Assembly: GCA_037444445.1 (NCBI GenBank)
Contig: JBBIMK010000005.1
Span: 30,001-62,000, forward strand
DNA: 32,000 bases
Source of the DNA: a bacterium
GTDB taxonomy: Bacteria; UBP7; UBA6624; JBBIMK01
Direction of reading: 5' to 3'
Shown here: positions 12,826 to 32,000 of the stretch, in pieces
Layout: each line of letters starts with the position of its first letter
Numbering within the stretch: position 1 is the first letter of the stretch
Translations under genes and position numbers: made by a program
Notes under the pieces: model-generated
Seen by the model: the letters and a program-made list of their open reading frames with translations, nothing else
The model's database searches: none
Told to the model about the DNA's origin: nothing

Positions 12826-12839
12826 AACAGGGAAAAGGG

Positions 12840-14369: not shown

Positions 14370-14380
14370 GAGGTGAGAAT

Positions 14381-17300: not shown

Positions 17301-18013
17301 TAACGGAGATTGATGACATGGGACGATTTGCCCGCAATATGGCTCTTTCCATTCTCAATTACCGGGAATGGTTCTATATGAATCCGACCCTGGATGTGAA
17401 TGATGCGAACCAGGGGTCCGCCGCGGACTGGGTTGGAAATTTCACCGATGGCATTTTTGGGATGACTGGCTTTTGTGCTCCATCATTATACACCCAGTTC
17501 CTTCAATCGGTGGCAGGTTTTGACCCGTATTCTGCCGATAATCCTTCCGTCTGCGCCAATGCTTTTCGGGCGAAACTCAATTTCCCAAACCATTCCATCA
17601 ATCCGCCCTTCCGGAATATCGCTCAACTGCTGGATGTGGCGTGGGAGCCCACCTATCCTGTCTCAGCCACCCCTCCCTCTTCTGCCGATGACCCGAGGGA
17701 TGTGATTGCCAAGTGGCGCGTCCTCTGCTTAAACGACGATTCAAGTATTATGGGCCCAGAGTGCCGGGATGAATCCGACCTGGATGGTTTACCATCGCCT
17801 CCATATGAACTCACCCGCTCCGCCGCTGTTCTTGCCCGCATTGACCAGGACATCACCGTGAAATCTTTTGCCTATCGCCTGGAGAGTCTGGGGAAAGTGG
17901 GCCCTTCCTCCCAGGGGAAACTCTTGATTTACAACCTGGGAGCCTTTCCACCCCTGAAAGAAATTGAACTGGTCGTGAAAGATGAGACCTCTCTCTTCAC
18001 CAAATACTACTGA
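14381..18013 (+). CDS. GspK/PilX-like pseudopilin-class protein, giant (1210 aa)
   Basis: N-terminus ...RVKQKGIALLAVLVFVAFAMPIVVILL lacks Glu+5, as in GspK/PilX. A C-terminal segment YFRGKININTAPFPVLKALF (17234-17278 for ININTAPFPVLKALF) matches the GspK NxNTA helix-hairpin-helix motif. RBS GAGGTG. Last gene of the pseudopilin block, as gspK usually is. Confidence 0.75.
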   Translation: MFRKQQKRTAFLRVKQKGIALLAVLVFVAFAMPIVVILLSLTAVEAQFPKAEITTRTTEEVSNAGFQDFLQHLFTSAPRFLWQCDAVGARANDDYRYYSPFLTVDSLASFWIRYPFLQPAEVYDPDITSRFRTANSLTVYPYYEWMDLADPYCEPDAGLGGGTPAAGVRTHLFLAFMPFGKRSIAFDIPDPLGLDLRSYINFAPGDPWNLTGRMNSMPVPNQPLFNLLSLVNDAKRAPYEFFIAGDTDPQANHPYNPYERVENSGFPTSVWPYDPVLPGEGFSLPVRGSILSDPDTGRPLENPLPTSNHLSYDAGVDIVPTGFEVSATDEGSRFPLYDFYHNPDDGYFFNPLPNPDPATSLPSRRFLDNLNNTSWVNTGYIQQHVALGWLIKGFGTDPAASRSKNRALLSYMTYYDMGDVGAPPGASDPQVVNNTRDDYDGNGYVDEPMRPFPGDLKEIQDVNLVKDTGERRGSGIGPAVFSWIKHLVTLYSAPAEQLSTLVNDPIITELLFGQGSLPCTSFTIYSDKAFHYCTLFDLYTPIQDQPAPGQPGWPTTNTCTSFRDLDGDGNPDTPQDCLLAFTDTNANKNLNDTLNWMTAFGQGDGNANNNIVDPETFYNFLTNTNSTVAVELTPLHDLLMRYLSPFFPAPFDYFQDLLARRVLGHWAAWQYFFRYSLTPNTNNCFGINGLDGDDDMKLARYHGIADSLIPIPTVGPWFDPGNVTEACGTTTSGDPMDFPSLVVGVDLGCGFNPGDPPPCPPGQSNGILEVDPNDPYCDNLSQNGLGAGNPPVYPDCYQPLIEDGLLIRPAFIVPDRLPQGLSFDASNPIPGSIRLTDELILFEILSSIAYADSPYRTYLDSDLDSRDDNNGPGNPPDPFPVNDICDPQGMRVQVGASILNSSSQNSGYYEADGRDTPGVGASCSNPPGGTLPDGWLNQDPANARPLYFRGKININTAPFPVLKALFAKLLTDDVTEIDDMGRFARNMALSILNYREWFYMNPTLDVNDANQGSAADWVGNFTDGIFGMTGFCAPSLYTQFLQSVAGFDPYSADNPSVCANAFRAKLNFPNHSINPPFRNIAQLLDVAWEPTYPVSATPPSSADDPRDVIAKWRVLCLNDDSSIMGPECRDESDLDGLPSPPYELTRSAAVLARIDQDITVKSFAYRLESLGKVGPSSQGKLLIYNLGAFPPLKEIELVVKDETSLFTKYY

Positions 18014-18098: not shown

Positions 18099-21000
18099 GT
18101 GAGGGAAGTGAGCAGGGGTTTTTTCTTTTCTCTACTGGGGTTCTTCGCCGTCGCAACTCCCTTGATAGCGGCGAATGAGAAGGTAAAAGTGAAGTATGAG
18201 GTGAAGGAGCAGGAGGACCGGGAAGTGGTGGCCATTCATTTCTCCTCTCCCGCCACTTACCGGATTGACACGGTGGACTTTCCCACCCGGTTAATGGTGG
18301 TTATTGAGAACGGGGAACTGGATACAGGTGTTCCCGCCACTCTGAATCGGGAAGGGAAAGTCATCAAGCAAATTCGGACGATTCTCGTGGGCAAGCCCGA
18401 GCAGATGAACCTGGTTCTGTACATCAATATTCGGACTTCTCTGGAGAAGGATGATTATTATTCCAAGCCCACCAGCGATGTGGATTTGGAAGTGGGTGTG
18501 TATAAGTGGGTGCTGGATAAATCCAAGAAGCCAGCGGTTCCTCCGGAGGAGAAGCCGAAGCCGAAAGAGGAGATAAAGCCACCTGCTAAACCCGAGGAGA
18601 AGCCACCGGAGGTTCCTGCTCCTCCCAAGCCGGAGGAGAAGCCTCCCGAGGCTCCACCCCGTCCCGGTCGTTTTAGCCTTTCCTCCATCACCTGGTCTTC
18701 TGTGGAGAACAAGGACCGATTTGAACTCCAGGTTACTCCGATGGACCATCTGGAATACACAGTTATAAAAAATTATTATCCCACACGTGTGGTGATTACT
18801 CTTCGGAATACTGTTCCGGGAGATGAAGCAGGATTTGTGGACAAACTGCTGGAGAAATCCATCACGGGATTGAATGTGTCCCGGTATCGGGGGTTGATAT
18901 TTGAGGACCATAAGGGGCCATCAGTGGAAATCGTTCTATATCTGACGGAGGACACGGCGATTTCTTCTTATGTAGAAGATGGGAAATTAGTGGTGGAAGT
19001 GATGGCACCTGTGGTTGCGCCACCGGTGCCACCGGCGCCGCCGGCACCTCCTGCACCGCCGGAGGTTCCACCGGCGCCTCCTGCACCGCCACCTGCACCA
19101 CCGGAGGTTCCACCGGCACCTCCTCCGCCGGAAGTACCTCCGCCTCCACCGCCACCTGCTCCACCGCCACCTGCTCCGCCTGCACCTCCCGTAGCTCCTC
19201 CGCCCCCTCCGCCTCCACCTCCGCCGGAAGTACCACCACCTCCTCCCCCTCCTCCACCTCCACCTCTTCCTGTAAAGAAAGCGGCATTTGAGATTCTTGC
19301 CTACGAGTTCACTTCTGCAGAGAATCTGGAAACCGTGACGATTACCTTCAGCGCTCCTTTGAGTAGCATAGATTATTCACCGCCGGCAAAATATTACTTT
19401 CCCACCCGAATCACGGTGACGGTAAAGGATGCTATTCTGAGCGAGACTCTGGGTGGAGAAGCAGGTTTTGAAAAGCCTGTAGAGGGGCGTACCATTCACA
19501 TGGTCAAAGGAGTATTTTATCCGGAAATACCGATGACCGAAATTGTGCTTTATCTGCGCGAGGACCGGATATACAACTATAAGGTTGTGAACAGCACTCT
19601 CGTGATTGAGGTGCAGGCGCCCGCAGTGGCTCCTCCACTGAAGCCGGAGGTAAAACCTGCACCACCTACGACGCCTGTGGAAGCCATATCTAAAGAGGAA
19701 TTTCCGGAGATAGATATATCCGTGAAGGAGGGGGCTTATGAACTACCACCGCCCCCGCGAAGGAAATATAAGGTGAGCGACCATGTGGTTCAGGTGGACA
19801 CACCGGGGCTTATGCCTGTGTCCGACATCATCATGCAAATGGCACGAGAAGCCAATGTGGGCGTGGTGTTTGACGCCAGTGCCTTCGCCGGGGTTGTTGG
19901 TGGACCCGGTGGCGGTGTAGGAGGTGTGGGCGGTCCAGGGGCGGGTGGGACCGGCCTCGGTAGTGCACGAGCCCTGATTATGGTTCACCTTCCCCCGATG
20001 CCCTTTGATGATGCCCTGGATGTGGTGACGAAAGCCTCGGGGCTGGAATGGAGGGTTCGCGAGTCGGAAGCGCCCTCCCTGGAAGGAACGGGCACCCCGA
20101 TTGTCCTGATTGGGCAACGATACCGCCTGGAGCAAGCCTACGGCATTCAAGTGTTAGATGCGATTCAGATTACTTATGCCAATCCGACAGCGCTGGTGCA
20201 GATGATTCTGGCGCTGGATTTGCACCCCTGCTTCAGCACGATTACAGGAGGCGGAGGATTCGGTGGCGGATACGGAGGATTCGGCGGCGGATTCGGTGGT
20301 GGCCTCGGTGGCTTAGGCGGCGGTCAACTGCCTTCCACCGGTAATTTCCTTTATGTTGCGAAGCCGAATCTGCTGGTTATCCGTGGAACACCGGAGATGA
20401 TAGCCGCAATCAAGGAAGCGGTATTAAAAGTTGACCGTCCACCCCGACAGGTAGAGTTGAGTTTCTCGCTGTTTTCTATAGACCGGAGCGCAGTGGTGAA
20501 CTATGGCCTGGCAGCACAGCCTTTAACGACCTATCTTTCTGACCGTTTTCGGGTGAACTTCGGAGCCCAGGGTGGTCTGGCTGTGGCGATTCTGGGGAAG
20601 AACCAAAGCCAGCAGATAGAGGATTTTACCACCGCTCTGGATGCCCTGGTTTCCCAGAGAAAGGCAAAGATTCTGACTGCGCCCCGGGTGGTGGCGGTTG
20701 ACGGCGTTCCGGCACAAATCAACATTACCACGGCTACGCCTGTAGTCTTCACCGTCATCACTTATGTTCAGGCTCCTGGCGGTGGTTTCACTCCGGTTCA
20801 AACCACGGTAATTCAAACGTTGACCACGGGTATCTCTTTCGGCGCTCTGGCGAACATAGATAATGAGGGAAATACCTGCCTGGGGTTAGCGCCCTCATTC
20901 AGCGAAATCAAGGGATTTGTTACCACGCCCCAAGGAAACCAGGTTCCTATCACTGAAACTACCAGCATCTCTACCATCGTTTGCTTAAAGGATGGTGATA

Positions 21001-21179
21001 CCCTCATTCTCGGTGGATTAACCCGGGAAAATATTTCCCGGCAGAAGGGGCAGGTTCCCCTTCTCGGCGACTTGCCCGTGATAGGACGCCTCTTCAGCCG
21101 GATAGAGACCAACAAAACCCAGCAAGAAATTCTTCTGATGATTACTGTTCGACTGGTTCCCAGCATAGGCGGGATATAA
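18099..21179 (+). CDS. pilQ: Secretin (PilQ/GspD family) with three AMIN-like modules and low-complexity spacers
   Basis: GTG start 8 nt after GGAAGGAGG. Signal peptide MREVSRGFFFSLLGFFAVATPLIAANE. Three about 100-aa modules each contain an F/Y-P-T-R-hydrophobic strand (DFPTRLMVVIEN, YYPTRVVITLRN, YFPTRITVTVKD), and the 2nd and 3rd end in LV(V/I)EV (KLVVEV, TLVIEV). N0/N1-like domains follow. The C-terminal secretin core has GQVPLLGDLPVIGRLFSRIETNKTQQEILLMITVRLV. Confidence 0.92.
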   Translation: MREVSRGFFFSLLGFFAVATPLIAANEKVKVKYEVKEQEDREVVAIHFSSPATYRIDTVDFPTRLMVVIENGELDTGVPATLNREGKVIKQIRTILVGKPEQMNLVLYINIRTSLEKDDYYSKPTSDVDLEVGVYKWVLDKSKKPAVPPEEKPKPKEEIKPPAKPEEKPPEVPAPPKPEEKPPEAPPRPGRFSLSSITWSSVENKDRFELQVTPMDHLEYTVIKNYYPTRVVITLRNTVPGDEAGFVDKLLEKSITGLNVSRYRGLIFEDHKGPSVEIVLYLTEDTAISSYVEDGKLVVEVMAPVVAPPVPPAPPAPPAPPEVPPAPPAPPPAPPEVPPAPPPPEVPPPPPPPAPPPPAPPAPPVAPPPPPPPPPPEVPPPPPPPPPPPLPVKKAAFEILAYEFTSAENLETVTITFSAPLSSIDYSPPAKYYFPTRITVTVKDAILSETLGGEAGFEKPVEGRTIHMVKGVFYPEIPMTEIVLYLREDRIYNYKVVNSTLVIEVQAPAVAPPLKPEVKPAPPTTPVEAISKEEFPEIDISVKEGAYELPPPPRRKYKVSDHVVQVDTPGLMPVSDIIMQMAREANVGVVFDASAFAGVVGGPGGGVGGVGGPGAGGTGLGSARALIMVHLPPMPFDDALDVVTKASGLEWRVRESEAPSLEGTGTPIVLIGQRYRLEQAYGIQVLDAIQITYANPTALVQMILALDLHPCFSTITGGGGFGGGYGGFGGGFGGGLGGLGGGQLPSTGNFLYVAKPNLLVIRGTPEMIAAIKEAVLKVDRPPRQVELSFSLFSIDRSAVVNYGLAAQPLTTYLSDRFRVNFGAQGGLAVAILGKNQSQQIEDFTTALDALVSQRKAKILTAPRVVAVDGVPAQINITTATPVVFTVITYVQAPGGGFTPVQTTVIQTLTTGISFGALANIDNEGNTCLGLAPSFSEIKGFVTTPQGNQVPITETTSISTIVCLKDGDTLILGGLTRENISRQKGQVPLLGDLPVIGRLFSRIETNKTQQEILLMITVRLVPSIGGI
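19005..19274 (+). repeat. Imperfect tandem CCN-rich repeat encoding a 90-aa poly-proline spacer inside the secretin
   Basis: Direct translation gives 63 Pro in 90 residues, with units like PPAPPAPPEV. There are uninterrupted runs of 10 Pro (19197-19226) and 11 Pro (19233-19265). Confidence 0.95.
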
Positions 21180-21248: not shown

Positions 21249-23345
21249 ATGGCGTTAGGAATTAGTTTGAGGAGAGGAAAGGAGAAGGAGAAGCCGGCGG
21301 GTTCTGTGGAGCGGCGGGAGCGGCGTGCCCGGGTGCCCCGACGAAAAATCAAGAGGACGAAATCATTTATAGGAATAGATTTTCTTTCCAATCAGGTTCG
21401 GATTACGCAAATTAGCAAAAAGGGGAAAGAGGTAAAACTGGAACGGGTGACGGTGGGTGAAATACCATCAGAGATTTTCCGCCTGGGAAAGGTTTCCGAT
21501 GTAGGAGCGCTGGCGGAAGTTCTGCACAAAATCATGACTGAAGCGGGCATCACAGGTTCCTTTGTGGTCCTCTCCCTTTCCGGGATGAACTCCGTCGTTC
21601 GGGTTATCACCCTTCCCAAGATGACGCGTTCCCAGTTGAGAGAGACGATGGAAGTCCAGTTAGGGCAATTCGTTCCCTTTCCGCCCGAGGACACGGTCTA
21701 CCAATACAAAATCCTCGGGGAAGTGGTGGAAGAGGAAACGCCCATGTATGAAATCCTGCTGGCGGCGGCCCGATATTCCCTCATTCATCCCCTCGTCCAG
21801 GCAGTCATCTCGCTGGGGCTTCAGCCCGTTGCGGTCAAAGTTGGATATGTGAGCGTTCTTTCAGTACTCAAGCGATATTATGAAGATTTTGCCCAGGCGG
21901 TAGCCATCGTTGACCTGCGAGATAAGTTCTGCGACATATCCTTTGTGGCTGAGAATTCCTTCCAGTTCTCTCGGACGGTAGAGTTTGGGTTAGAGACGAT
22001 TTACACCAAGATTGGGAGTCTGGTGGGGCTAACCACCAAAGAGATACGGGAACGATTGAAGGAAGGCGAGATAGACCTGATGGCACCGGTGGCGACGGAG
22101 GTAGAAGAAGGTGCAAGTGAGACGACTCGGCTGGTGGAGGGGTTAAAGAACGCCTTTCAGAGTTTCGCCAACGAGTTAGTTCGCTCAGTCCGCTACTATG
22201 AGGCAAAGAGCCGACGGAAACTCCGTGTTGGACGAATCGTGCTTGTCGGCGGTGTGTCCAATTTTGTGAACCTGGAATCCTTCTTGATGGAAACCACGGC
22301 GGTGGATGTAGTGATTGGGGACCCGCTGGAAAATGTGGATTATTCTACGGCGGAATGGTTTCCCCCGGAATACAAGGCGAATATCAGTGAAATCGCGGTG
22401 AGCCTCGGGCTGGCAGCGGATGGGATGAACCCGAAAACCCGAAAAGACTTGAACCTTTTGCCCCGGGAATTTCTGGTTCGCAAGCAGGTTCAAAATGTGG
22501 TGGTGGGCTTTATAGCCGTTGTGGCCGTGGCAGGGGTGTTTATGTATACCGTCCGGACTAATCTGCTAAATGAACTGCAAAGGATGCAAGCGGAACAGGC
22601 TCAGTGGGACCAAAAGGTAAAGTCGGTAGAACCAGACGCCAAGCAATTTGACGAAATCCAGGCCCAGATTACCAATGTTTCTCCTCGGATTCGGACCATA
22701 GCCATGGGCTTTGGTTCCCAGTTTCCCTGGACGGTGCTTCTGGAAGAAATTCAGAACCTGACTCCGAAGAATGTATGGTTAGGTCAAACGGCGGGTGGAG
22801 CCTCGACTCCTGAAGGACTCATCCTTGAAAAAATTCCGGCGATTGAGGTCAAAGGACAAGCCATTGGGCTCAGACCTATTTTCACCTTCGCTAAAGCCAT
22901 TTACGACTCTGAGATTTTCGTGGGCGATGTAATGGTGGAATATCAGGAGGCTACCCAGGTAGGGGGAGGAGGGGGAGGAGGTGGCCCAGCGCCGGGAGGG
23001 AGAGGAGGAATGACGCTGTCCTTTCCATTTTCAGAACCTTCCTCTGCTAATGCCAATGTCCCTCTGGGGGTGGGTTCCGACCTGGGACAATTGCTCCAGT
23101 ATTTTGAAATAGTTCGGGAATTTCCGATTCTGTATAATTTTACACTGAAATTTCAGATGGACCAAGATTTGATACAGCCGAAAGCCTTGATAGAGAAATT
23201 TAATGAAATAATGGGAACAGCAGGAGGTGGTGCAGGTGGAACTGGAACCCAGGGTCAACCCGGCGGAGCTGCCCCCGCGGGGGGGGCGCCCGGGGGTTTC
23301 CAGCCCGGACCTGGCGGTCCCGGCCCCGGCCCCGGCCCCGGGTGA
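21249..23345 (+). CDS. pilM: PilM-PilN fusion protein (GspL-like topology) with glycine-rich C-terminal tail
   Basis: RBS GGAGGTGAAAGGAG. Actin-like ATPase fold motifs FIGIDFLSNQVRI, VDLRDKFCDISF, IVLVGGVSNFVNLESF (PilM). These are followed in the same ORF by the PilN signature LNLLP (22449-22463), the TM helix VVVGFIAVVAVAGVFMYTV, the coiled coil NLLNELQRMQAEQAQWDQKV and a periplasmic domain. The protein ends ...GGFQPGPGGPGPGPGPG. Confidence 0.85.
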   Translation: MALGISLRRGKEKEKPAGSVERRERRARVPRRKIKRTKSFIGIDFLSNQVRITQISKKGKEVKLERVTVGEIPSEIFRLGKVSDVGALAEVLHKIMTEAGITGSFVVLSLSGMNSVVRVITLPKMTRSQLRETMEVQLGQFVPFPPEDTVYQYKILGEVVEEETPMYEILLAAARYSLIHPLVQAVISLGLQPVAVKVGYVSVLSVLKRYYEDFAQAVAIVDLRDKFCDISFVAENSFQFSRTVEFGLETIYTKIGSLVGLTTKEIRERLKEGEIDLMAPVATEVEEGASETTRLVEGLKNAFQSFANELVRSVRYYEAKSRRKLRVGRIVLVGGVSNFVNLESFLMETTAVDVVIGDPLENVDYSTAEWFPPEYKANISEIAVSLGLAADGMNPKTRKDLNLLPREFLVRKQVQNVVVGFIAVVAVAGVFMYTVRTNLLNELQRMQAEQAQWDQKVKSVEPDAKQFDEIQAQITNVSPRIRTIAMGFGSQFPWTVLLEEIQNLTPKNVWLGQTAGGASTPEGLILEKIPAIEVKGQAIGLRPIFTFAKAIYDSEIFVGDVMVEYQEATQVGGGGGGGGPAPGGRGGMTLSFPFSEPSSANANVPLGVGSDLGQLLQYFEIVREFPILYNFTLKFQMDQDLIQPKALIEKFNEIMGTAGGGAGGTGTQGQPGGAAPAGGAPGGFQPGPGGPGPGPGPG

Positions 23346-24216
23346 AGTCCCCGCTTTTGATTTTGCAAAAGCCCAGAAGAGAAGCCAGACCTTCCTCTGG
23401 GGAACCGCTATCTTCGCAGTTCTCGCTATCATTGCCATCCTCTACGGATATTATTCCGGCGTGGTCTCCCCCTTAAAAACTCAAATAGAAGCCTCTCGCT
23501 CTCAGATTGGGCAGTTGAAGAGTAAGTATGACGCAGATAAAAAGAAACAGGAGGCTCTCCCTTATCTGAAAGTTCTGCAAAAAGCCGTGAATGACAAGTG
23601 GCAGTTCGTTCTGGCTGAAGATGTCCCTGAGAAGCGTCGGTGGTTCTTCAAAAGTTACTGGGAAGTGCTGGACCATTTCGGGCAGAACTGGGTGGATACC
23701 TGTGAAATCTCCTATGTCGTTCCGATAGAATTTAAGCTGAAACTTTTGGAGAATCGGGACTGGACCTATGAACACACCTGGACTGCGAGGAAAATGTCGG
23801 ATATCAGCACGAAATGGAGGCAGTCAGGCCAGACTCAAAAAGCTCGTATCTCTGAGACGGGGATGGCCATCACCGGAAATGACCTGTTGATTACCCTGCC
23901 GTTTGAGATGAAGGTGGCAGGAGAATACCAGAGCATCAAAGATTTCCTGGATAATATGTTCTACCATTCTCCTTACTTTATGGCAATCTTTTCCATCAAG
24001 CTCTCGTACATTTCCGAGATGACTACCATCGGGAGTTTTCAGCCTGTGGGAACTATGGAGTTAGCAGAAATGAAAGGGGCATATTTTTACCTCAATCCTA
24101 CGGGCGCTCCGAACACGAGTTTCCTGCCTGCCCAGATGGGTGGAGGAATGGGATCTATGGGTGCTGGCGGTGGAGGCTCAGGAATCCGGGAACTTCCAGG
24201 CGGTGCTGCATTATGA
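23236..24216 (+). CDS. PilO/GspM-like bitopic inner-membrane protein (start uncertain: GTG 23227, 23230 or 23236)
   Basis: Cytoplasmic basic stretch FAKAQKRSQ, TM helix TFLWGTAIFAVLAIIAILYGYY, coiled coil LKTQIEASRSQIGQLKSKYDADKKKQEAL, and a C-terminal domain with FEMKVAGEYQSIKDFLDNMFYHSPYFMAIFSIKLS (PilO-like pattern). There is no ATG/GTG/TTG in frame between 23236 and the TM helix. AGGAGG at 23222-23227 lies 8 nt before GTG 23236. Confidence 0.6.
   Translation: MELEPRVNPAELPPRGGRPGVSSPDLAVPAPAPAPGEVPAFDFAKAQKRSQTFLWGTAIFAVLAIIAILYGYYSGVVSPLKTQIEASRSQIGQLKSKYDADKKKQEALPYLKVLQKAVNDKWQFVLAEDVPEKRRWFFKSYWEVLDHFGQNWVDTCEISYVVPIEFKLKLLENRDWTYEHTWTARKMSDISTKWRQSGQTQKARISETGMAITGNDLLITLPFEMKVAGEYQSIKDFLDNMFYHSPYFMAIFSIKLSYISEMTTIGSFQPVGTMELAEMKGAYFYLNPTGAPNTSFLPAQMGGGMGSMGAGGGGSGIRELPGGAAL
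23279..23342 (+). repeat. Simple-sequence tract: G8 homopolymer plus (CGGCCC)x3 hexamer repeat
   Basis: G8 at 23279-23286, G5 at 23292-23296, and CGGCCC repeated at 23321-23338 with an imperfect unit CGGTCC at 23315-23320. It lies inside the region where two ORFs overlap in different frames. Confidence 0.9.
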
Positions 24217-24253
24217 GAGAACACGACCCAGACTTCAAGGAGGTGTTAGATTC

Positions 24254-24481
24254 ATGGAAATCAGTAACAAGGTAGGTTGGCTCATTATCATTGTGGTGCT
24301 TCTGATTCTGGCATTTGTCCTGTACAAGAGGTATACACCCAAATCAGCGGAAGGACCTTTGCCTGAACCACAGAAGCCTGCTGGAGGAGTTGCCCCTATG
24401 GCACCCACAGGACCAGAGGGTGGTGAGGGGCAAACGGCTCCGGGTGGTGGTGGGATTATTTTCTACTTCCCGGCTGCCTGA
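24254..24481 (+). CDS. Small single-pass membrane protein P1 (75 aa), no recognised family
   Basis: AAGGAGGTG lies 8 nt before ATG 24254 (the ORF-track start 24140 overlaps the upstream gene and has no RBS). MEISNKVGWLIIIVVLLILAFVLYKRYTPKS + Pro/Gly-rich linker + C-terminal GGGGIIFYFPAA. Confidence 0.65.
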   Translation: MEISNKVGWLIIIVVLLILAFVLYKRYTPKSAEGPLPEPQKPAGGVAPMAPTGPEGGEGQTAPGGGGIIFYFPAA

Positions 24482-24511
24482 TAATCCATCGCAACCGAAG
24501 GAGGGGTAAGC

Positions 24512-24724
24512 ATGGACACAAGAACCATCACCTGGATAGTAATCATTATCGTAGTGCTTCTCATTGGATTCTGGGTGTGGAAGAAGTTTTCCACTCGCAC
24601 CCCCCAGCCTCCGCCGCCTGCAGCGGGGAGAAGAGGGCGTCTTGGGAATATGGAGGAAGAAGACATTTTTGGGGGCGAAGATGAGGGGGGATATGTCATT
24701 TACTTCCCCTCTTCCACACGATAA
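24512..24724 (+). CDS. Small single-pass membrane protein P2 (70 aa), paralog of P1
   Basis: GAAGGAGGGG lies 5 nt before ATG 24512. MDTRTITWIVIIIVVLLIGFWVWKKFSTRT + Pro/Gly/acidic linker + EGGYVIYFPSSTR. It shares the octamer IIIVVLLI and the C-terminal (I/V)I(F/Y)YFP motif with P1. Confidence 0.65.
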   Translation: MDTRTITWIVIIIVVLLIGFWVWKKFSTRTPQPPPPAAGRRGRLGNMEEEDIFGGEDEGGYVIYFPSSTR

Positions 24725-24738
24725 GGCAGGGATAGCGA

Positions 24739-24888
24739 ATGGAGATTAACTGGAGATTGATTGGAATTATTGCAGTCATAGCGCTGGCAGGCGTGATTGC
24801 GTATGTATGGTTAAAAGGTGGGGCGGTGAAACCCGACGAAATCCGCCAGCTGAAAGGCGGTGGCGCAGGGGTCGTTCTTATCCAGTAA
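24739..24888 (+). CDS. Small single-pass membrane protein P3 (49 aa), below the ORF-track cutoff
   Basis: My own translation: ATG 24739 ... TAA 24886-24888 gives MEINWRLIGIIAVIALAGVIAYVWLKGGAVKPDEIRQLKGGGAGVVLIQ. The layout matches P1/P2 (short N-terminus, TM helix, basic flank, Gly run, hydrophobic C-terminal strand). The RBS is weaker (AGGCAGGGA). It fills an otherwise unexplained gap. Confidence 0.45.
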   Translation: MEINWRLIGIIAVIALAGVIAYVWLKGGAVKPDEIRQLKGGGAGVVLIQ

Positions 24889-24926
24889 ACACTGAACCAT
24901 CGCCGAAAGAAAGGAGGGAGATAGCG

Positions 24927-25697
24927 ATGAAGAAAAGATATCATGAATTTTATGTGGGAGGGGGAATTCTTCTGGTGCTCGGGGTGATGACTTTATGGAT
25001 AACCCGGAGCGCTCTGGGAGGTGCCGGGGTGGAGAAACCGCCACCGGGGGCATCCGGTGCCCCCTGGATGCGTGCCCATCCCACTCCTTTCCTGGCAGAA
25101 GCAGAAAAACTTAAAGGCAGTTATGAACACGACTACCTCTGGATGGCGGATATTCTGAATAAGGTGGATTTGAGGAAAGACCCCCTGGATTACCGGTATG
25201 ACTATTTTCGGAAGAAACTCTCAGATGTCAAAGAAGGGTTTGGGAAATTAGACCCCTTTGATTATCCGCCGGATTTGCCGGAGGAATTACGCCCCAAAGG
25301 ACCTCAGGTGGAAGAAAGTAAGGAAGCACTCCTCGCCCGGCTCCTTGCAAACTACAAAAGGGACATTATTGCCACGGTGGAAATCCGGGGAGTTTACATC
25401 TTGAATGGGGAGAAGAAGGTGATGATGGGCTTTCGTGGAACCCGCTCCGTGCCTTTTATGACCGGTTTTTATCGGGAAGGCGATACCATCATAGCCTTAG
25501 AGGAAATAGATGTGGTTCCACCGGGACGGTTATTCCGAACCCCTATGGCTGTGTTTGGCACGCTGAGGGTGGACCATATCCAGTCAGGATTTACCACCTT
25601 CAAAGTGGGCGCCTACTATGCTGCCGAACCCCAGAGTATTCGCTGGGACTACATCACCTGCTACCGGACACAGAGTCAGACTTTTAATTGTGAGTGA
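24927..25697 (+). CDS. Membrane-anchored periplasmic protein, PilP/GspC-HR-like by position and C-terminal pattern
   Basis: AAGGAGGGAG lies 6 nt before ATG 24927 (the ORF-track start 24807 lacks an RBS and overlaps P3). N-terminal anchor MKKRYHEFYVGGGILLVLGVMTLWI. The C-terminal segment VEIRGVYILNGEKKVMMGFRGTRSVPFMTGFYREGDTIIALEEIDVV resembles the PilP/GspC homology-region beta-sandwich (x-G-I-x-x-x-G-x-x-x-A-x-I ... Y-x-x-G-D-x-I). The CDS call is solid; the functional call is tentative. Confidence 0.6.
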   Translation: MKKRYHEFYVGGGILLVLGVMTLWITRSALGGAGVEKPPPGASGAPWMRAHPTPFLAEAEKLKGSYEHDYLWMADILNKVDLRKDPLDYRYDYFRKKLSDVKEGFGKLDPFDYPPDLPEELRPKGPQVEESKEALLARLLANYKRDIIATVEIRGVYILNGEKKVMMGFRGTRSVPFMTGFYREGDTIIALEEIDVVPPGRLFRTPMAVFGTLRVDHIQSGFTTFKVGAYYAAEPQSIRWDYITCYRTQSQTFNCE

Positions 25698-25758: not shown

Positions 25759-27369
25759 GTGTCTGTTTTAGATTTTCTAAATCAGTCATTAACGAATCTT
25801 TTTGACTTTATTTCCCGCTCATCTGAGCCACTTCGCCTGTGGATGGACCATATCGTCTGGCAAAATCCGGCGTATTATCTCCTGTTACCGGAAATCTCTC
25901 TCACGATAGTGGGGATTTTCATGATTTTCTTAAATGCCATGCTTTCTGACAGGCGAGCCAAAATCGTGGTGCCCATCGTGGGAATTTCCGTTCAACTTTT
26001 TTCTATCGTTATGACTTATGTGATGATGTACACCACCTCCCGCTACTTTACTTTCGCTCTGGGTCAATTCTGGGGAGGGCTGGAAACAGTAGACCCCTTC
26101 TCCCTCTTCTGGGACCAGATGACGGACTGGACTACCATTGTAGTCATTCTTCTGTCAATGCAGTATCCAGCCGTTGACAGGGTTCGGGGGGAATACTTTG
26201 GAATCCTCACTTTTGCTTCAGCGGCGATTATGTTTATGGCTTCTTCATCGGATGTTTTCGCCATCTACCTGATGACTGAATTTTCCAGCATCACTTTATA
26301 TGTGCTGGTAGGAATGCTAAAAGAGAATCGTTTCAGTAATGAAGCAGTGATGAAATTTTTCCTTGTGGGCTCATTTGCCGGGATTCTGATTCTGTTCGGT
26401 GCGGCGATTCTATATGGGCTGACGGGGACGACGAACCTGTATGACTACAAATTCATCTTCACGAATAATCCCTTGCTCGGACCGGTGGCGGCGCTGGCAC
26501 TGACGCTGGTGGCGGCGGGGATGGGGTTCAAAATCGCTATCGCCCCATTTCACAACTGGGCGCCAGATACTTACGAGGGTGCACCCACCCCCATCACGGC
26601 CTTCATCTCTGTGGCGCCGAAGGTGGGTGGCATCTGCGTCTGGTGCCGATTCTTCCTCCTGGGGCTGGTGGCAATGAAGGGGGAATGGGTTTACCTGGTG
26701 GCGATTCTGTCTGCAGCCACGCTCCTCATTGGCAATCTTGGCGCCCTGCATCAGTTCAACCTCAAACGACTACTGGCTTACTCCAGCATCGCTCATATGG
26801 GGTATGTGCTGATGGGAATTGCCACGGGTGCACTCCAGTATGCTCCCGTATTAGAAACGGATACGGATGGCTTTCGCGCCGCTCTCTTCTATATGTTCGC
26901 CTACCTGTTTTTCAATCTGGGTGCCTTCGCTGTCGTGGTTTTCCTGGAGTCTCAAGGTATCGCACCCGATATGAGAAACTACAAAGGCCTGGTTCAACGC
27001 TCTCCATTGCTGGCATTTCTAATGACCCTGTTTATGCTGGCTCTGGCGGGAATTCCCTTCACATCTGGTTTCATCGCCAAATGGGTGCTGTTTCGTGCCA
27101 TCTTACAGGTGCCCGAACTCCTCTGGCTGGCAGTCCTCGCAGGCGTGCTCACTCTGCTGGCGTTATACTACTACATCAAAATACCATATTATATGTTCTT
27201 CTTCTCACCCGAAGGTGATGCAAAGCCGATGATTCTACCGCCCCTGTATCATCCTCATAGCCTTGCCCTTTTGATTTGCACCGCCGGCGTTTTGCTGATG
27301 TCCATCCTGCCCAAAGTGTTTTACGACTTTGCTTCTAACTCCTATTTCCTCAATTACAACATCTATTAG
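25759..27369 (+). CDS. Proton-conducting antiporter-like membrane subunit (NuoN / NDH-1 subunit N / MrpD family), orphan
   Basis: 536 aa with about 14 TM helices. Signature GMGFKIAIAPFHNWAPDTYEGAPTPITAFISVAPKVGG is typical of NuoN. Conserved charged channel residues appear present (LMTEFSSITLY, AVMKFFLVGSF, GFKIA, SGFIAKWVLF). The start is uncertain: GTG 25759 (11 nt after GGGAGGG) or ATG 25843. Confidence 0.88.
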   Translation: MSVLDFLNQSLTNLFDFISRSSEPLRLWMDHIVWQNPAYYLLLPEISLTIVGIFMIFLNAMLSDRRAKIVVPIVGISVQLFSIVMTYVMMYTTSRYFTFALGQFWGGLETVDPFSLFWDQMTDWTTIVVILLSMQYPAVDRVRGEYFGILTFASAAIMFMASSSDVFAIYLMTEFSSITLYVLVGMLKENRFSNEAVMKFFLVGSFAGILILFGAAILYGLTGTTNLYDYKFIFTNNPLLGPVAALALTLVAAGMGFKIAIAPFHNWAPDTYEGAPTPITAFISVAPKVGGICVWCRFFLLGLVAMKGEWVYLVAILSAATLLIGNLGALHQFNLKRLLAYSSIAHMGYVLMGIATGALQYAPVLETDTDGFRAALFYMFAYLFFNLGAFAVVVFLESQGIAPDMRNYKGLVQRSPLLAFLMTLFMLALAGIPFTSGFIAKWVLFRAILQVPELLWLAVLAGVLTLLALYYYIKIPYYMFFFSPEGDAKPMILPPLYHPHSLALLICTAGVLLMSILPKVFYDFASNSYFLNYNIY

Positions 27370-29272
27370 GACGATACAATCTCGTTTTCAGATAAAGCCT
27401 CACGAGAAAGTTAGAGAGGTTTTCCCTTTTCTGCTTTTTCTGATTCTTCCGCTCACTCTCGGGATGATGGTTCTGTGGAGAGGTGGGGAATCCATACCTG
27501 CTCTTCTCCTCTTCGGGTTGTTGATAAGCGGGCTACTCTTTTCCATTTTTCTTTCTATCCCACTGGATTTTCCTTCGCTTATTCTGGCGGTATTTGCCTT
27601 ATATTTAGCCTTTAATACTTTTTTTACCTCCACCTATTTTCTCAGCAGCTTTCAGGTGTTTTTTTTCTGGTATTTCTCTTTTGTGGTGTATTGGGTTACA
27701 AGGGGGGTGTGGAAGAAGTTGCCAGAGCCTATTTTTGCGGTGCAGATTGCTCTGGACATTCTGGGTGCCAGTGCACTTTTGTCAGGTCTGGTGGGCTTGT
27801 TTGCGCAATGGGGTGGAGGGGATTTCAAAGCCCCTCTGACCGGGACTTTTTACTGGCATAATCCGTATTCTGCTTATATCGGGATGATAGGGTTTCCATT
27901 TCTGGCTCGATTTTTTTCCGTAACTCCCCGGGCACGGGTCAGTTATGCGATAGGGATGGGGCTTTTACTGGTCTGTCTGCTTCTTACCCGTTCACGGGGC
28001 GGACTTCTCACTTTCCTGCTGGCGCTCCTCTACTTCCTGCTCAGGCTACGGAGGAGTCGCCGACCGGAAGGAAAGTGGGTTCCCCTGATGGTGGTGGGAG
28101 GCGGCGTTATGCTGGTTTTCCTGTTCCTCTTACGCCCGGACCTGTGGCTCCCTCTGGTTCAGCGATTTCAACTGGCTCTTCGTGGGGAGGAATCAGTTCT
28201 TGCCCGCCTGGAGTTCTGGGCAGTGGCGTTGAGAATTGCCTGGACTTCTCCACTTTTCGGAACAGGGCTGGGAAACTATGGAGATTTTTTTTCGCATTTC
28301 CAATCCCGCCTGGAGTTCTATACCTCTGACCCTCATAATCTCTTGCTTCAAGTGCTGTCAGAAACAGGTTTGATTGGCTTCCTCCTCTTCATCATTTTCG
28401 TGTTCAGCCTTGCCTATACCTTACTTCGTTCACCTATTCCGGAGGGTTGGGCAGGGCTTTTCAAACTCTCTTTAGAAGCCTCACTACTGGGAGCCTTCGC
28501 CCACTCTTTACTGGACTTTGACTGGACTTTCCCGGCTTTTACTGCGCACTTTTTTTTCTTCGTCGGACTGCTCTCTGTTCTTTCCACCTCCCATTCTGTT
28601 CGCATATCGAAACCTCTCCGAAACGCTGTGGCGGGAAGTCTGACCCTTCTGGCAGTGCTGTGTATGGTATGGATGGCTCGTTATGGCATATCCCGGCTCC
28701 TCTGGGTTCAATCCCAGAAGGCTATGCTTTCTGATAAAATGGAAGTGGCTATGGAAAAAACCCACAGAGCCGTGTCCATTTTTCCTTACGACGCAAGCCT
28801 GTATTTCTGGATGGCTCGGGTGGAATACGAGATGGGAAAAGAGGAGGGATTGAAATATGCGGAGGAAGCAGTTCGCCTTCATCCCATGCAAGCGGGCTAC
28901 CGAAATCTACTGGGAAAATATTTGATTCAGATTGGGGACCTGGATGCAGGGGAGAGGGAACTGCTAACGGCGCTGCGGATGGACTCATATAATCGCCCGG
29001 ACATTTATGTTACCCTCGCCCGTTTCTACCTGCAATCCAATCAACTGGAGAAAGCAGAGGGAATTCTGAATCGGGCTTTGAACCTTTATCCCTTTACTAC
29101 ATCGGAGGAAGTGTTCCGCACCCAGTTGCACTGGCGCGACCTGCGGATGAACGAAGTCATTGCTGAGTTGCATACTCTTCGCGCCATTTTTTTCCTGCGT
29201 AAAGGAAAAGTAGAATGGGCAGAAGAGGAGAGAAAACGAGCAGAACAACTCCTCATAGTGAGTTCGCCTTGA
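27329..29272 (+). CDS. O-antigen ligase-like (Wzy_C family) polytopic membrane protein with C-terminal TPR repeats
   Basis: Wzy_C hallmarks LLLTRSRGGLLTFLLALLYF, FGTGLGNYGDFF, DPHNLLLQVLSETGLIGFLLFI. The C-terminal 200 or so aa have TPR-like repeats (ASLYFWMARVEYEMGKEEGLKYAEEAVRLHP, GYRNLLGKYLIQIGDLDAGERELLTALRMD, IYVTLARFYLQSNQLEKAEGILNRALNLYP). The start is uncertain: TTG 27329 (overlaps the upstream gene by 41 nt) or ATG 27464. Confidence 0.82.
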   Translation: MLLTPISSITTSIRTIQSRFQIKPHEKVREVFPFLLFLILPLTLGMMVLWRGGESIPALLLFGLLISGLLFSIFLSIPLDFPSLILAVFALYLAFNTFFTSTYFLSSFQVFFFWYFSFVVYWVTRGVWKKLPEPIFAVQIALDILGASALLSGLVGLFAQWGGGDFKAPLTGTFYWHNPYSAYIGMIGFPFLARFFSVTPRARVSYAIGMGLLLVCLLLTRSRGGLLTFLLALLYFLLRLRRSRRPEGKWVPLMVVGGGVMLVFLFLLRPDLWLPLVQRFQLALRGEESVLARLEFWAVALRIAWTSPLFGTGLGNYGDFFSHFQSRLEFYTSDPHNLLLQVLSETGLIGFLLFIIFVFSLAYTLLRSPIPEGWAGLFKLSLEASLLGAFAHSLLDFDWTFPAFTAHFFFFVGLLSVLSTSHSVRISKPLRNAVAGSLTLLAVLCMVWMARYGISRLLWVQSQKAMLSDKMEVAMEKTHRAVSIFPYDASLYFWMARVEYEMGKEEGLKYAEEAVRLHPMQAGYRNLLGKYLIQIGDLDAGERELLTALRMDSYNRPDIYVTLARFYLQSNQLEKAEGILNRALNLYPFTTSEEVFRTQLHWRDLRMNEVIAELHTLRAIFFLRKGKVEWAEEERKRAEQLLIVSSP

Positions 29273-30588
29273 TGAATCTCATTTTATCTTTGATGGCTCT
29301 ATTGCTTTATAACCTGATAATATATCTGGCTTTCCCTTTTGTTTTGGTTTACCTGTGGGGGAGGAGAAAGATTTATCCGGATAGAGAATATCTTCTCCAG
29401 AGGGCAGGGAGATACCCGCCGGTGGGTGAGAAAGTGATGTTCTGGATTCACGCAGTGTCTATGGGAGAAGGGCGTGCGGCCGCACCACTTGTCAAAACGC
29501 TCCTGCAAACCGTGCCTCCTTCTTCACTCCTCGTCACCACCTCCACCCCTTCCGGTAAGAAAACCCTCTCTGCTCTTTTCCCTGAATTATCCGTGATTTA
29601 TTCACCCATTGACCTGTTTCCCTGCCCCTTGCTGTTCCTGAAACACTATCGTCCCCGCCTGCTTCTGCTGGTAGAAACGGAGTTCTGGCCCAATCTAATC
29701 GTGTTTTCTAAGGTCTATGGCGTGAAGATTTTCCTGGTTAATGGGAGAATCTCAGATAGAACTCTTGGGGCAAGAAATCCCTGGAGATTCCTCCTTCGTC
29801 AACTGCTACGACATTTCACTCTTTTCCTGATGCGGAGTGAAGAAGATGCACGGAGAATCGCCTCTCTGGGTGCTGACCCGCAGAAGATTCAAGTGGTAGG
29901 GGATATGAAATACGAGGTGCCCCGTGATGGCGTGGAGGAAACGGTAGAGCATCTTTTAAGTTTGTATCCTTTTCTCAAAGGGAAGAAAATCATTACCGCC
30001 GGGAGCACTCACGCGGGTGAAGAAGAGATTTTACTGCAAGCCTTTCAAGAGGTCCGGCACAGATTTCCCCAGGCTGTGCTGATTCTGGCACCCCGACACC
30101 CGGAAAGAGCTTCTGAAATCCTCTCTCTGGCACACGCCACGGGATTTCGCATTCTCCAGCGGAGTGCTAACCTGTCCGATTCTTCCCAGGAGCAGGGAAA
30201 GAATTCTTTTCCAGCCATTTTACTTCTGGATACTGTAGGAGAGTTGTTGAGCGCCTACGCTCTGGCAGATGTGTGCGTGGTGGGAGGGAGTTTCATTTCT
30301 CGGGGGGGTCATAATCCACTGGAGCCGGCATCTTTTCAGAAGCCCGTGTTATTCGGACCTTCTATGGAGAACTTTCGGGAATCCGCATCCCTGCTACTGA
30401 ATGAGGGAGGAGCCCGATGCATCCAGAGTGCCTCGGCACTTTCCACCACACTCCTGACTTTACTCTCCCAGCCGGAGACCCTTCAAGAAATGGGGGAAAA
30501 GGCCTTTCGCTCCGTATCCCGTTATCAGGGCGCTTCACGGAGAATCCTACAAGAATTACAGGTTTATTTATCGGGGGGTCCGGGATGA
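29272..30588 (+). CDS. waaA: 3-deoxy-D-manno-octulosonic acid (Kdo) transferase
   Basis: Start ATG 29272 shares one nt with the upstream stop TGA (29270-29272). N-terminal anchor MNLILSLMALLLYNLIIYLAFPF. Motifs FWIHAVSMGEGRAAAPLVKTL and VVGGSFISRGGHNPLEPASFQKPVLFGPSMENF are characteristic of KdtA/WaaA. Confidence 0.9.
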   Translation: MNLILSLMALLLYNLIIYLAFPFVLVYLWGRRKIYPDREYLLQRAGRYPPVGEKVMFWIHAVSMGEGRAAAPLVKTLLQTVPPSSLLVTTSTPSGKKTLSALFPELSVIYSPIDLFPCPLLFLKHYRPRLLLLVETEFWPNLIVFSKVYGVKIFLVNGRISDRTLGARNPWRFLLRQLLRHFTLFLMRSEEDARRIASLGADPQKIQVVGDMKYEVPRDGVEETVEHLLSLYPFLKGKKIITAGSTHAGEEEILLQAFQEVRHRFPQAVLILAPRHPERASEILSLAHATGFRILQRSANLSDSSQEQGKNSFPAILLLDTVGELLSAYALADVCVVGGSFISRGGHNPLEPASFQKPVLFGPSMENFRESASLLLNEGGARCIQSASALSTTLLTLLSQPETLQEMGEKAFRSVSRYQGASRRILQELQVYLSGGPG

Positions 30589-31793
30589 AGGCAGAATCTT
30601 TTGAGCAGGCGGTTCAACGGCCTCGCAGTCCTACTTTTCTTCCCTTTTTTAAGCCCGGGATAGGAAAGGAGGAGGAAGCGGAAGTTCTGGGGGTATTACG
30701 GTCAGGGTGGTTGACCACGGGAGAGAGGGTTCAGCATTTTGAACAGGAATTGCGAAAATATCTGGGGGGTCAAGAGGTTTTTGCGGTTTCCTCCTGCACC
30801 GCCGCTCTTCACCTGGCTCTGGATATTCTGAATGTCCAGCCTGGAGATGAAGTGCTGACCACGCCATTCACTTTCGCATCCACGGTGAATGTGATTTTGC
30901 ATCGGGGTGCAACGCCGGTGTTCGTAGATATATCACCGGATGACTTGAATCTGGATGTTTCGCAAATCCCTGCCCGCATCACACCCAGAACCCGGGTGCT
31001 TCTACCGGTTCATTTCTCGGGCTATCCAGCCCGGATGGATGACCTGCTTTCTATGGCGAAAAAGCAGTCTCTCGTGGTGGTGGAAGATGCCGCTCACGCC
31101 TTCGGTGCTCAATATGACGGCAAGGCCATCGGCACTTTTGGGCATCTCACCTGCTTTTCCTTTTATGTCAATAAGAATCTCACCACCGGAGAGGGAGGTG
31201 CCATAGCCACGAACAGGAAAAAGTGGGGGGAAGCATTGCGGATTCGCCGCAATCACGGAATGTCCGCCTCCGCTTATGAGCGGGAGGGCGGTCCCCCCGG
31301 GTTCGGATACGATGTCCTCTATCCGGGATATAAATACAATCTTTCCGATTTACATGCCGCCATAGGAATTCATCAACTCCAGCGTTTTTCATCTTTCCAG
31401 GCCCGAAGGAAAGCCCTCGCCAGCCTGTATACCCGCTCGTTTCAAACCTTTCCCGGGATTACCCTGCCATTTCGCGATCTCTCCCGTCACCAAACTTCCT
31501 GGTATCTTTATGTTATCCTTTTGAATCTGGAGGAACTGACCGTAGACCGGGATGAATTTATGAGGCTATTGCGGGATGAGAATGTGGGGTCGGCAGTTCA
31601 CTATAAGCCAGTTCACCTATTTCGGTTTTATCGGAAAGCCCTCCCTTACAGAGAAGGAGACTTTCCCGTGGCAGAATCGGTCTATCGGCGAATTCTTTCC
31701 CTTCCACTCTATCCTATGATGACCGAGGAAGATGCGATGAATGTGGTAGGTGCTGTGGCGAGGGTCATAAAGCGAACCCTCCGAAGGAAATAG
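30585..31793 (+). CDS. DegT/DnrJ/EryC1/StrS-family PLP-dependent sugar aminotransferase (ArnB-like N-terminus)
   Basis: ATG 30585 overlaps the waaA stop as ATGA. FLPFFKPGIGKEEEAEVLGVLRSGWLTTGERVQHFEQEL, VVEDAAHAFGAQYDGKAIGTFG, and the PLP-lysine motif FSFYVNKNLTTGEGGAI. Confidence 0.9.
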   Translation: MKAESFEQAVQRPRSPTFLPFFKPGIGKEEEAEVLGVLRSGWLTTGERVQHFEQELRKYLGGQEVFAVSSCTAALHLALDILNVQPGDEVLTTPFTFASTVNVILHRGATPVFVDISPDDLNLDVSQIPARITPRTRVLLPVHFSGYPARMDDLLSMAKKQSLVVVEDAAHAFGAQYDGKAIGTFGHLTCFSFYVNKNLTTGEGGAIATNRKKWGEALRIRRNHGMSASAYEREGGPPGFGYDVLYPGYKYNLSDLHAAIGIHQLQRFSSFQARRKALASLYTRSFQTFPGITLPFRDLSRHQTSWYLYVILLNLEELTVDRDEFMRLLRDENVGSAVHYKPVHLFRFYRKALPYREGDFPVAESVYRRILSLPLYPMMTEEDAMNVVGAVARVIKRTLRRK

Positions 31794-31796: not shown

Positions 31797-32000
31797 GTGA
31801 AATCTTCCTCCCGTTTTCATCTGGCACGCAGACGTGAACCCCGCTTCCCTGTGAGTGTGCCAGCAACCCTCACCACTTTTGCAGAAAACATGGAGCCCCG
31901 CCAGGTTCTCTATGGGGTGACGAAGGATATAAGCCGAGAAGGAACTCTCCTGGCCTTCTCCTCTCCTCCCCCTTTGCAAATTGGTGAATTTGTGAAAGTG
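31797..32000 (+). CDS. PilZ-domain protein, 5' fragment (runs off the window; not in the ORF track)
   Basis: My translation from GTG 31797 (3 nt after the upstream stop), open to nt 32000: VKSSSRFHLARRREPRFPVSVPATLTTFAENMEPRQVLYGVTKDISREGTLLAFSSPPPLQIGEFVKV. It contains both halves of the c-di-GMP-binding PilZ signature, RxxxR (RREPR) and (D/N)xSxxG (DISREG), at the usual spacing. Confidence 0.7.
   Translation, partial: MKSSSRFHLARRREPRFPVSVPATLTTFAENMEPRQVLYGVTKDISREGTLLAFSSPPPLQIGEFVKV

Follow-up and report, generated by a model that had tools for sequence, protein, structure and literature searches.

The window analysed here is a 32,000-nucleotide stretch of a bacterial contig (JBBIMK010000005.1, positions 30,001 to 62,000) that carries a block of genes of the type IV pilus (T4P) or type II secretion system (T2SS) kind. 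Within this block, three short open reading frames (ORFs), called P1, P2 and P3, lie in tandem on the plus strand between a gene for a PilO/GspM-like protein and a gene for a 256-residue protein (Table 1). An earlier note, drawn from the letters alone, had described them as three miniature membrane proteins, and its coordinates, lengths and sequences proved exact. The same holds for its transmembrane (TM) strings, for the basic flanks that follow the helices (KRYTPK, KKFSTR and K..K), and for the C-terminal strings, which read GGGGIIFYFPAA in P1, EGGYVIYFPSS(TR) in P2 and GGGAGVVLIQ in P3. Each ORF also has a Shine-Dalgarno (SD) site of its own, AGGAGG for P1 and P2 and the weaker AAGGCAGGGA for P3. 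Gene callers predict P1 in three related loci (L001, L002 and L003). Two longer ORFs compete with the short ones, one of 113 residues (24140-24481, with a GTG start) that would absorb P1 and one of 296 residues (24807-25697) that overlaps P3. Neither is conserved in L001, the closest relative in that comparison, and therefore the short genes are the right reading.

P1, P2 and P3 are genuine protein-coding genes under purifying selection. All three are retained in L001, which belongs to a close relative from the Chocolate Pots hot spring and shares about 86% nucleotide identity with the window, and in L002 (Logan SRR11582170), which is nearer to the window than L001. The ratio of nonsynonymous to synonymous substitution rates (dN/dS, Nei-Gojobori method) between the window and L001 is 0.18 for P1, 0.13 for P2 and 0.24 for P3, and ratios of 0.10-0.21 were obtained for the neighbouring PilMN, PilO-like, 256-residue and antiporter-like genes. 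Conservation in syntenic loci and dN/dS had both been proposed as checks on coding status, and both speak for it, as the ORFs are kept and their ratios, 0.13-0.24, resemble those of their neighbours. For P3, a value of 0.24 was also found between L006 and L010. Substitutions in the three genes fall mostly at third codon positions, the sole insertion or deletion in the region between the window and L001 is an in-frame one of 9 nt within P3, and the SD sites are preserved in all 10 loci compared. Scans with Rfam and for promoters and terminators found no terminator and no Rfam element from the PilO-like gene to the gene for the 256-residue protein. The changes in P1 between the window and L001 are unevenly spread, with 0 nonsynonymous and 9 synonymous changes in the N-terminus and TM helix, 16 and 10 in the linker, and 1 and 5 in the C-terminal 12 residues. 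Selection therefore acts on the anchor and the terminal peptide and spares the linker.

P1 and P2 are related to each other (BLASTP, E=1e-4) and fall in a common profile family, which bears out the earlier proposal that they are diverged duplicates. The octamer IIIVVLLI, which had been offered in support of duplication, reflects the composition of TM helices and is by itself no evidence. A profile of P1 and P2 was compared with 1.84 billion representative proteins, no word filter being applied, and gave 10 matches at E<=1e-3. Nine are small proteins of 65-85 residues, eight of which align end to end and share the same architecture; the ninth (P0013) aligns over the N-terminal two thirds only. 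The tenth match, an ankyrin protein, was judged spurious. A profile search of 5.8 billion clusters brought the family to 13 clusters in total. No member was found in GTDB representative genomes, the P1-type subset of the alignment found no relative in the genome and metagenome contig collections searched, an exact look-up of P1 and P2 in an assembly index returned no record, and neither plasmids nor phages yielded a tblastn match to P2.

Proteins of the P1/P2 family begin with M-x-I-(S/N)-(N/S)-(K/R)-(V/I)-G-(W/Y), a cap that leads into an Ile/Val-rich TM helix. The helix is followed by an aromatic residue with a K/R cluster, by a linker of roughly 20-45 residues with no conserved sequence, and by a Gly or acidic hinge before the motif (I/L/V/F)(I/V)(I/V/L)(Y/F/H)(F/L)(P/A), which stands 0-5 residues from the end and has GG-(I/L)(I/V)(I/V)(Y/F)FP as its core. 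Flank, linker, hinge and motif are present in both P1 and P2, which end in GGGGIIFYFPAA and EGGYVIYFPSSTR, and both score strongly against the family (E about 1e-26 to 1e-27 with its hidden Markov model (HMM), and E=9e-38 and 9e-25 in a library search). P1 fits the cap fully; that of P2 has diverged (MDTRTITW), in a manner partly shared by P2-type copies from a second gene context described below (MDSKIVW, MDMNNKAVW). The linker and C-terminal module of P2 aligns with these copies (P0009, P0010 and P0014) and with proteins from pil lineages that have a single copy (P0012 and P0015-P0018). The single-copy proteins mix a P1-type cap (MQISNKVGY) with a P2-type charged linker (G-x-x-G-R-G-x-E-E-x-x-L-E-E-E-G-G), and therefore the ancestral gene probably had both features.

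P3 belongs to a sister family with the plan M-x-(I/V)-N-W-(K/R), TM helix, (E/D)-x-(I/V)-R-(Q/G)-(L/F), Gly turn and a hydrophobic end of four to five residues, the C-terminal peptide being GG-x-V-V-L-I-Q/R. It occupies the same position in five further lineages outside the clade of the window. Orthologues are found in L001/L003, L002, L006-L009, L010, L011 and L012, and the P3 family HMM scores them at E=1e-12 to 2e-27 when the ORFs of all loci are searched. Pairwise similarity between P3 and P1 or P2 is not significant. Profile-profile alignment (hhalign) of the two families gives 87% probability, restricted to the cap and TM helix, and when the tails alone are used EGGxIIYF is aligned with GGAGVVLI (P=0.009). 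Each of the two HMMs ranks the other family as its top non-member (E=0.002-1) among 3453 ORF segments. These comparisons are suggestive of P3 being a remote paralogue of P1 and P2.

Searches of Pfam, NCBIfam and PDB sequences gave no match to P1-P3 above cut-off. Sub-threshold matches lie mostly over the TM helix (SARAF, DUF6479, FixQ and PP0621). FixQ is matched by two of the six P3 members (E=0.0014, TM region only), and a match of P3 to DUF4244 (E=0.083, below cut-off) likewise covers the TM helix only. DUF6693 is matched by one of 16 members (E=1.9e-6), probably P0013, which also has a weak precomputed match to it. The earlier view that no canonical T2SS or T4P component has this form is upheld: P1-P3 match neither a pilin signature nor any family in Pfam, NCBIfam or PDB. 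Neither of the two microprotein families is represented in curated databases, and both are previously undescribed. Both are very rare and come so far only from uncultured bacteria, one of the samples being a hot spring.

The pil context (context A) has the order secretin, PilMN, PilO-like, P1-family, P3-family, ~256-residue protein, Proton_antipo_M, Wzy_C, KdtA, DegT and PilZ. It recurs in L001/L003, in L002, in L006-L009 (NCBI metagenome-assembled genomes of 'bacterium JZ-2024 1', unclassified Bacteria), in L010 (a JGI contig) and in L012 (GCA_900174565.1), and partly in L011. The earlier note had suggested a search beside pil genes of other genomes, and in four lineages outside the window's clade, L006-L009, L010, L011 and L012, the P1/P2 family does lie between the PilO-like and 256-residue genes. 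The 256-residue protein of these four lineages is only 33-38% identical to that of the window, and between L006 and L010 synonymous substitution has reached saturation; therefore, the arrangement is old. Two P1/P2 copies at the pil site are found in the window's clade only, the other pil lineages having one copy together with P3. The P3 family was encountered only in context A.

The P1/P2 family also occurs in a second setting (context B; L004, L005 and L013), in which two or three tandem copies, P1-type and then P2-type, lie downstream of genes for an extracytoplasmic function (ECF) sigma factor, a zf-HC2 anti-sigma factor and VIT/VWA proteins. The microprotein genes there resemble the tail of an operon (L004 5763-10592; L005 123-4588). 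GGDEF and HD genes stand just downstream in L004 and L013. L005 may be arranged likewise, but its last gene runs off the contig end and lacks a Pfam entry. No obvious signal peptide is seen at the called start of the VIT-VWA protein, and so this protein could be the tethered partner in this context. In L013 (GCA_050737495.1), at 840-1161, the P1-type copy seems frameshifted, with the start MEIKNKVGW... in one frame and an end resembling that of the family, ...SGMVVSFSR, in another, and it is either a pseudogene or an assembly error.

Table 1. Features of the window, P1-P3 and their parts first (positions numbered within the window)
Feature	Position	Strand	Description
P1	24254..24481	+	75 aa; N-terminal motif MEISNKVGW; TM helix about aa 7-24; flank YKRYTPK; Pro/Gly-rich linker aa 31-63
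P1 C-terminal peptide	24443-24478		GGGGIIFYFPAA, aa 64-75
P1 SD site	24238-24243		AGGAGG, 10 nt before start
P2	24512..24724	+	70 aa; P1 paralogue; MDTRTITW, TM helix, flank WKKFSTR; charged linker with G-x-L-G-N-MEEEDIF
P2 C-terminal peptide	24683-24721		EGGYVIYFPSSTR
P2 SD site	24499-24504		AGGAGG, 7 nt before start
P3	24739..24888	+	49 aa; sister-family member; MEINWR, TM helix, flank W-L-K, conserved D/E-x-I-R-Q-L
P3 tail	24856-24885		Gly turn, C-terminal GVVLIQ
P3 SD-like site	24723-24732		weak, AAGGCAGGGA; kept in L001 and L002
PilO/GspM-like bitopic protein	23227..24216	+	about 326-329 aa; directly upstream of P1
256-residue protein	24927..25697	+	directly 3' of P3; N-terminal hydrophobic segment, beta-rich C-terminal half
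PilM-PilN fusion	21249..23345	+	698 aa; PilM_2 at aa 42-389, Pfam E=1.7e-32
LNLLP of PilM-PilN	22449-22463		
Secretin	18099..21179	+	Pfam Secretin E=1.5e-30; weak N-terminal AMIN match below Pfam cut-off; upstream of PilMN
Prepilin peptidase	7913-8827		Pfam scan
Four pseudopilins	8946-14369		canonical leaders G/(F/Y)T(I/L)xE
1210-residue protein	after pseudopilins, region 8946-18013		faint GspK signal
Proton_antipo_M, Wzy_C/TPR protein, Kdo transferase (KdtA), DegT aminotransferase	25759-31793		after the 256-residue gene
PilZ-domain gene, 5' part	31797..32000	+	cut by window end; last member of syntenic block

The PilM-PilN fusion is the upstream neighbour in every pil-context locus that reaches that far. 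KDLNLLPREF follows the PilM domain of this fusion and leads to a TM helix, beyond which the periplasmic part contains a poly-Gly insert (VGGGGGGGGPAPGGRGGMTLSFPF) and ends in a Gly/Pro-rich C-tail; the overall architecture is GspL-like. The next protein matches T2SSM (E=0.004) and PilO (E=0.006) in Pfam, both below cut-off, and its best PDB profile match is the PilO of M. xanthus (3jc8, E=0.62). These three independent sub-threshold matches to PilO/GspM weakly suggest that it is PilO-like; the place of its gene after PilMN is conserved across loci. Its ORF has a GTG start at 23227-23236 preceded by AGGAGG, and runs over the 3' end of PilMN for ~110 nt in a different frame. The gene calls in L001, L006, L007 and L012 contain an overlap of comparable or lesser length, and those in L010 contain none.

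The gene for the 256-residue protein is the partner on the other side in all pil-context loci. The earlier label of "PilP-like" for this protein is without support, as no similarity to PilP and no lipobox were detected. No Pfam, NCBIfam or PDB match and no Cys lipobox were found, and an AlphaFold2 (AF2) model built with close relatives reached a predicted local distance difference test score (pLDDT) of 40.5, too poor for fold comparison; a fold search gave no match below E=0.35. Besides near-identical copies, only two homologous clusters, 91-96% identical, were found among 5.8 billion clusters, and its alignment retrieved nothing from GTDB genomes and one short contig, L011, from metagenome contigs. 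A C-terminal Cys (C255) is invariant in all five lineages, and the motifs DLR(K/R)DPL(D/E)xR and PPG/RGxL are conserved.

An AF2 model of P2, made from a 14-sequence alignment, contains a confident helix at residues 3-27 (pLDDT 84-93) and is disordered in the remainder, which fits an anchor with a flexible linker and a short linear motif. A beta-hairpin that had been suspected in the tail, formed of an amphipathic strand, a GG turn and a hydrophobic strand, is absent from the model. For bacterial small membrane proteins, the positive-inside rule is a reasonable guide to orientation. One K or R precedes the helix (two in one protein) and there are usually 2-4 in the 15 residues after it, such that 20 of 23 proteins have more after than before, typically three against one. 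Because of this excess, an N-out/C-in orientation is favoured, and the C-termini of the microproteins are predicted, with modest confidence, to be cytoplasmic. The earlier placement of the tails in the cytoplasm is thus backed by the charge bias, which is not decisive and which three members do not have.

Taken together, P1-P3 may tentatively be read as single-pass inner-membrane tethers with a C-terminal docking peptide, probably within a pilus/T2SS-like platform and with tails that are most likely cytoplasmic. Coding status, family, synteny, sites of selection and the helix and disorder predictions behind this reading were computed; topology, membership in the machine, docking function and the identity of the partner we infer. 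The conserved N-terminal cap and TM helix would serve as the anchor in the inner membrane, the poorly conserved, disordered linker would set the reach, and the hydrophobic(-Pro) peptide after the Gly hinge would dock a folded partner via strand addition or groove binding. In this operon, the microproteins would be co-expressed with PilM-PilN, the PilO-like protein and the 256-residue protein; their TM helices would probably join the PilN/PilO TM bundle, and their tails would hold or regulate a soluble or peripheral partner. With tails in the cytoplasm, candidate partners would be the actin-fold domain of PilM, the PilZ protein at the end of the block, and the ATPase. The earlier idea that the YFP strand is positioned for PilM is not specifically favoured, because PilM is already fused to PilN and the fusion carries an LNLLP of its own.

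Several observations weigh against the tether reading or its parts. The AF2 monomer of P2 has no predicted structure for the C-terminal motif. In L011 (489-695), a P1-family protein of 68 residues ends in ...QEGGE, without the terminal hydrophobic-Pro peptide; in this most divergent of the syntenic contigs, the adjacent P3 orthologue keeps its end, GIMLYLR. The charge bias is missing from three members, the L011 protein, P0006 and P0008; in the last two the charge rule gives an equivocal or reversed answer, net charge even leaning the opposite way. The PilMN and PilO-like proteins also finish in Pro/Gly-rich tails similar to the P1 linker, and there such tails are presumably periplasmic. No pil gene was found on the context B contigs of up to 19 kb (L004, L005 and L013), and because the P1/P2 family occurs there without pil genes nearby, a pilus-specific role is not required.

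The points on charge and linker composition bear on the opposite topology, N-in/C-out, in which the linker would extend across the periplasm and the terminal strand would dock a periplasmic beta-sheet in the PilN/PilO-like domains, the 256-residue protein or the N-domains of the secretin. The other bitopic proteins of PilMNOP/GspLM platforms (PilN, PilO and GspM) are all oriented in this way, which is established knowledge, and position 6, ahead of the helix, is a conserved K or R. The lack of a net positive C-flank in P0006 and P0008 also suits this orientation, as does the P/G/A/T/Q composition of the P1 linker, akin to the Gly/Pro-rich C-tails of PilMN and the PilO-like protein. However, the K+R excess after the helix described above runs counter to this orientation, and the N-tail, at just 4-7 residues, is short enough for translocation, leaving the opposite topology rather unlikely.

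The microproteins could also be general small membrane tethers or envelope proteins of the lineage, merely carried in the operon and with no role in the machine. This would account for context B, in which tandem P1/P2-type genes stand by ECF sigma, anti-sigma and VIT-VWA genes, and near GGDEF/HD genes, at three loci without pil genes. It is nevertheless an improbable account, as the slot between the PilO-like and 256-residue genes is kept across lineages with saturated synonymous divergence, P3 was met only at the pil site, and the tight spacing, own SD sites and lack of a terminator fit co-translation with the platform genes. The earlier proposal of the microproteins as candidate accessory subunits or regulators of this machine is partly supported, by the conserved slot in the pil operon, and is weakened by the presence of P1/P2 proteins in context B.

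Going further than the tether reading, and by analogy with known docking peptides, the two families might represent novel structural parts of a divergent type IV filament machine, and their peptides would dock PilM, the PilZ protein or the ATPase as a new layer of coupling or regulation, and their module would have been reused for VIT-VWA tethering in a related lineage; such a proposal is speculative and must be considered unlikely at present. The machine in the window is distinguished by its PilM-PilN fusion, its giant pseudopilins and its conserved Proton_antipo_M and PilZ neighbours.

A further alternative is that P1-P3 are unconventional mini-pilins, cut by the prepilin peptidase of the window (7913-8827) after the Gly of NKVGW and built with their helix into the fibre. 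The short leader, its mostly conserved terminal Gly and the long hydrophobic helix directly after it invite this comparison, as do the peptidase gene itself and the fact that no small major pilin gene was seen in the window. However, P1-P3 gave no N_methyl match even at E<=10, nor did 22 family members at E<=1, position +5 holds I or V rather than Glu, and there is no F/M-T-L at +1 to +3, whereas the pseudopilins of the locus all carry the canonical leader. The Gly at -1 is replaced by T, V or A in P2-type copies, and the K/R cluster after the helix argues for a topology opposite to that of pilins. A mini-pilin identity is thus very unlikely. The reading of P1-P3 as chance ORFs or non-coding spacer, for which only the small size of the ORFs and the weak SD of P3 speak, has next to no probability and is already refuted by the conservation data, that is, by purifying selection, third-position bias, the in-frame indel, the conserved SD sites and the distant homologues at the protein level.

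Other identities were considered and rejected. Flp/Tad pilins (G/XXXXEY) do not fit, given that no member has an E-Y pair after the Gly. P1-P3 are not PilN, being proteins of 49-75 residues with no domain, and the INLLP-type motif resides in the 698-residue PilM fusion; nor are they PilP or GspC, as they lack both a Cys and a folded domain. The idea of a lipoprotein or of a cleavable signal peptide was dismissed, since neither a Cys nor an A-x-A site is present and the hydrophobic stretch has at least 17 residues. The C-terminal motif is not a degron or PDZ ligand, since its distance from the end varies from 0 to 5 residues and the last residues are unconserved. The precursor of a ribosomally synthesized and post-translationally modified peptide was rejected as well, there being no modifying enzymes nearby and a TM helix present.

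The closest mechanistic analogies are the INLLP peptide of PilN that binds PilM and the C-terminal peptide of FtsZ that binds FtsA. PilN of the type IVa pilus is, like the microproteins, a bitopic inner-membrane protein of the pilMNOP operon with a short terminal docking peptide that is hydrophobic and contains Pro. However, PilN has ~200 residues and a periplasmic ferredoxin-like domain, whereas the microproteins have 49-75 and no folded domain. In PilN the motif is at the cytoplasmic N-terminus and about 10 basic residues separate it from the helix, whereas the peptide of the microproteins is C-terminal; the PilM-PilN fusion of the window already has a true PilN motif (LNLLP). The C-terminal linker and peptide of FtsZ binds FtsA, which has a PilM-like actin fold, and ZipA. 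It shares with the microproteins a variable, disordered linker before a short, conserved, hydrophobic docking peptide, with selection on the peptide and not on the linker. In FtsZ the module sits on a polymerising GTPase rather than on a TM anchor, and the likeness is an analogy only.

CcoQ/FixQ, CydX, AcrZ, KdpF and MgtS are proteins of 30-80 residues with one TM helix, encoded in the operon of the complex that they join; annotation usually overlooks small proteins of this type, which are oriented according to the positive-inside rule. P1-P3 are of similar size and likewise have one TM helix and are encoded in an operon, but they have no sequence relationship to these proteins, most of which lack a long disordered tail with a conserved end peptide. 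To our knowledge, no small accessory protein of this type has been described from T4P or T2SS machines. PilO and GspM, bitopic platform components of the kind encoded beside P1-P3, differ from them in having about 200 residues and a periplasmic ferredoxin-like fold, which the microproteins do not. The parts list of a T4P/T2SS platform consists of PilMNOP or GspCLM, secretin, ATPase and platform protein, and we know of no microprotein subunit in such a platform. None of the ten papers listed by a literature search on small membrane proteins in pilMN operons contains such a phrase.

In the loci compared here, two unannotated families are kept at one fixed position of a platform operon, under purifying selection, in lineages that are otherwise only ~35% identical. 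Should P1-P3 act as subunits or regulators, the T4P/T2SS machine class would gain its first small-protein components, and if the tether reading is true, P1-P3 would provide a clear bacterial example of an anchor, linker and docking peptide used as a tether. The significance is limited by the narrow distribution, with 13 clusters from uncultured bacteria only, and by the second, non-pilus context of P1/P2.

The remainder of the pil block is co-oriented from the prepilin peptidase through PilZ, as judged by Pfam scans. The four pseudopilins are unusually large, at 362-534 residues. No small major pilin, PilB/GspE ATPase or PilC/GspF was found among the window ORFs scanned, a set that holds not every ORF of at least 100 residues. 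A single Proton_antipo_M gene, NuoN/MrpD-like, follows the gene for the 256-residue protein in every syntenic lineage (L001, L002, L006, L010 and L012), and in this way a lone antiporter-like subunit is tied to a pilus/secretion operon. The Wzy_C/TPR protein is of the O-antigen ligase / pilin O-glycosylase type. The PilZ fragment at the window end is 96% identical to the N-terminus of the PilZ protein of L002, and Pfam PilZ is detected in L001, L002, L006, L010 and L012. Genes linked to cyclic di-GMP are found near both contexts of the microproteins, as PilZ ends context A and GGDEF/HD genes lie near context B.

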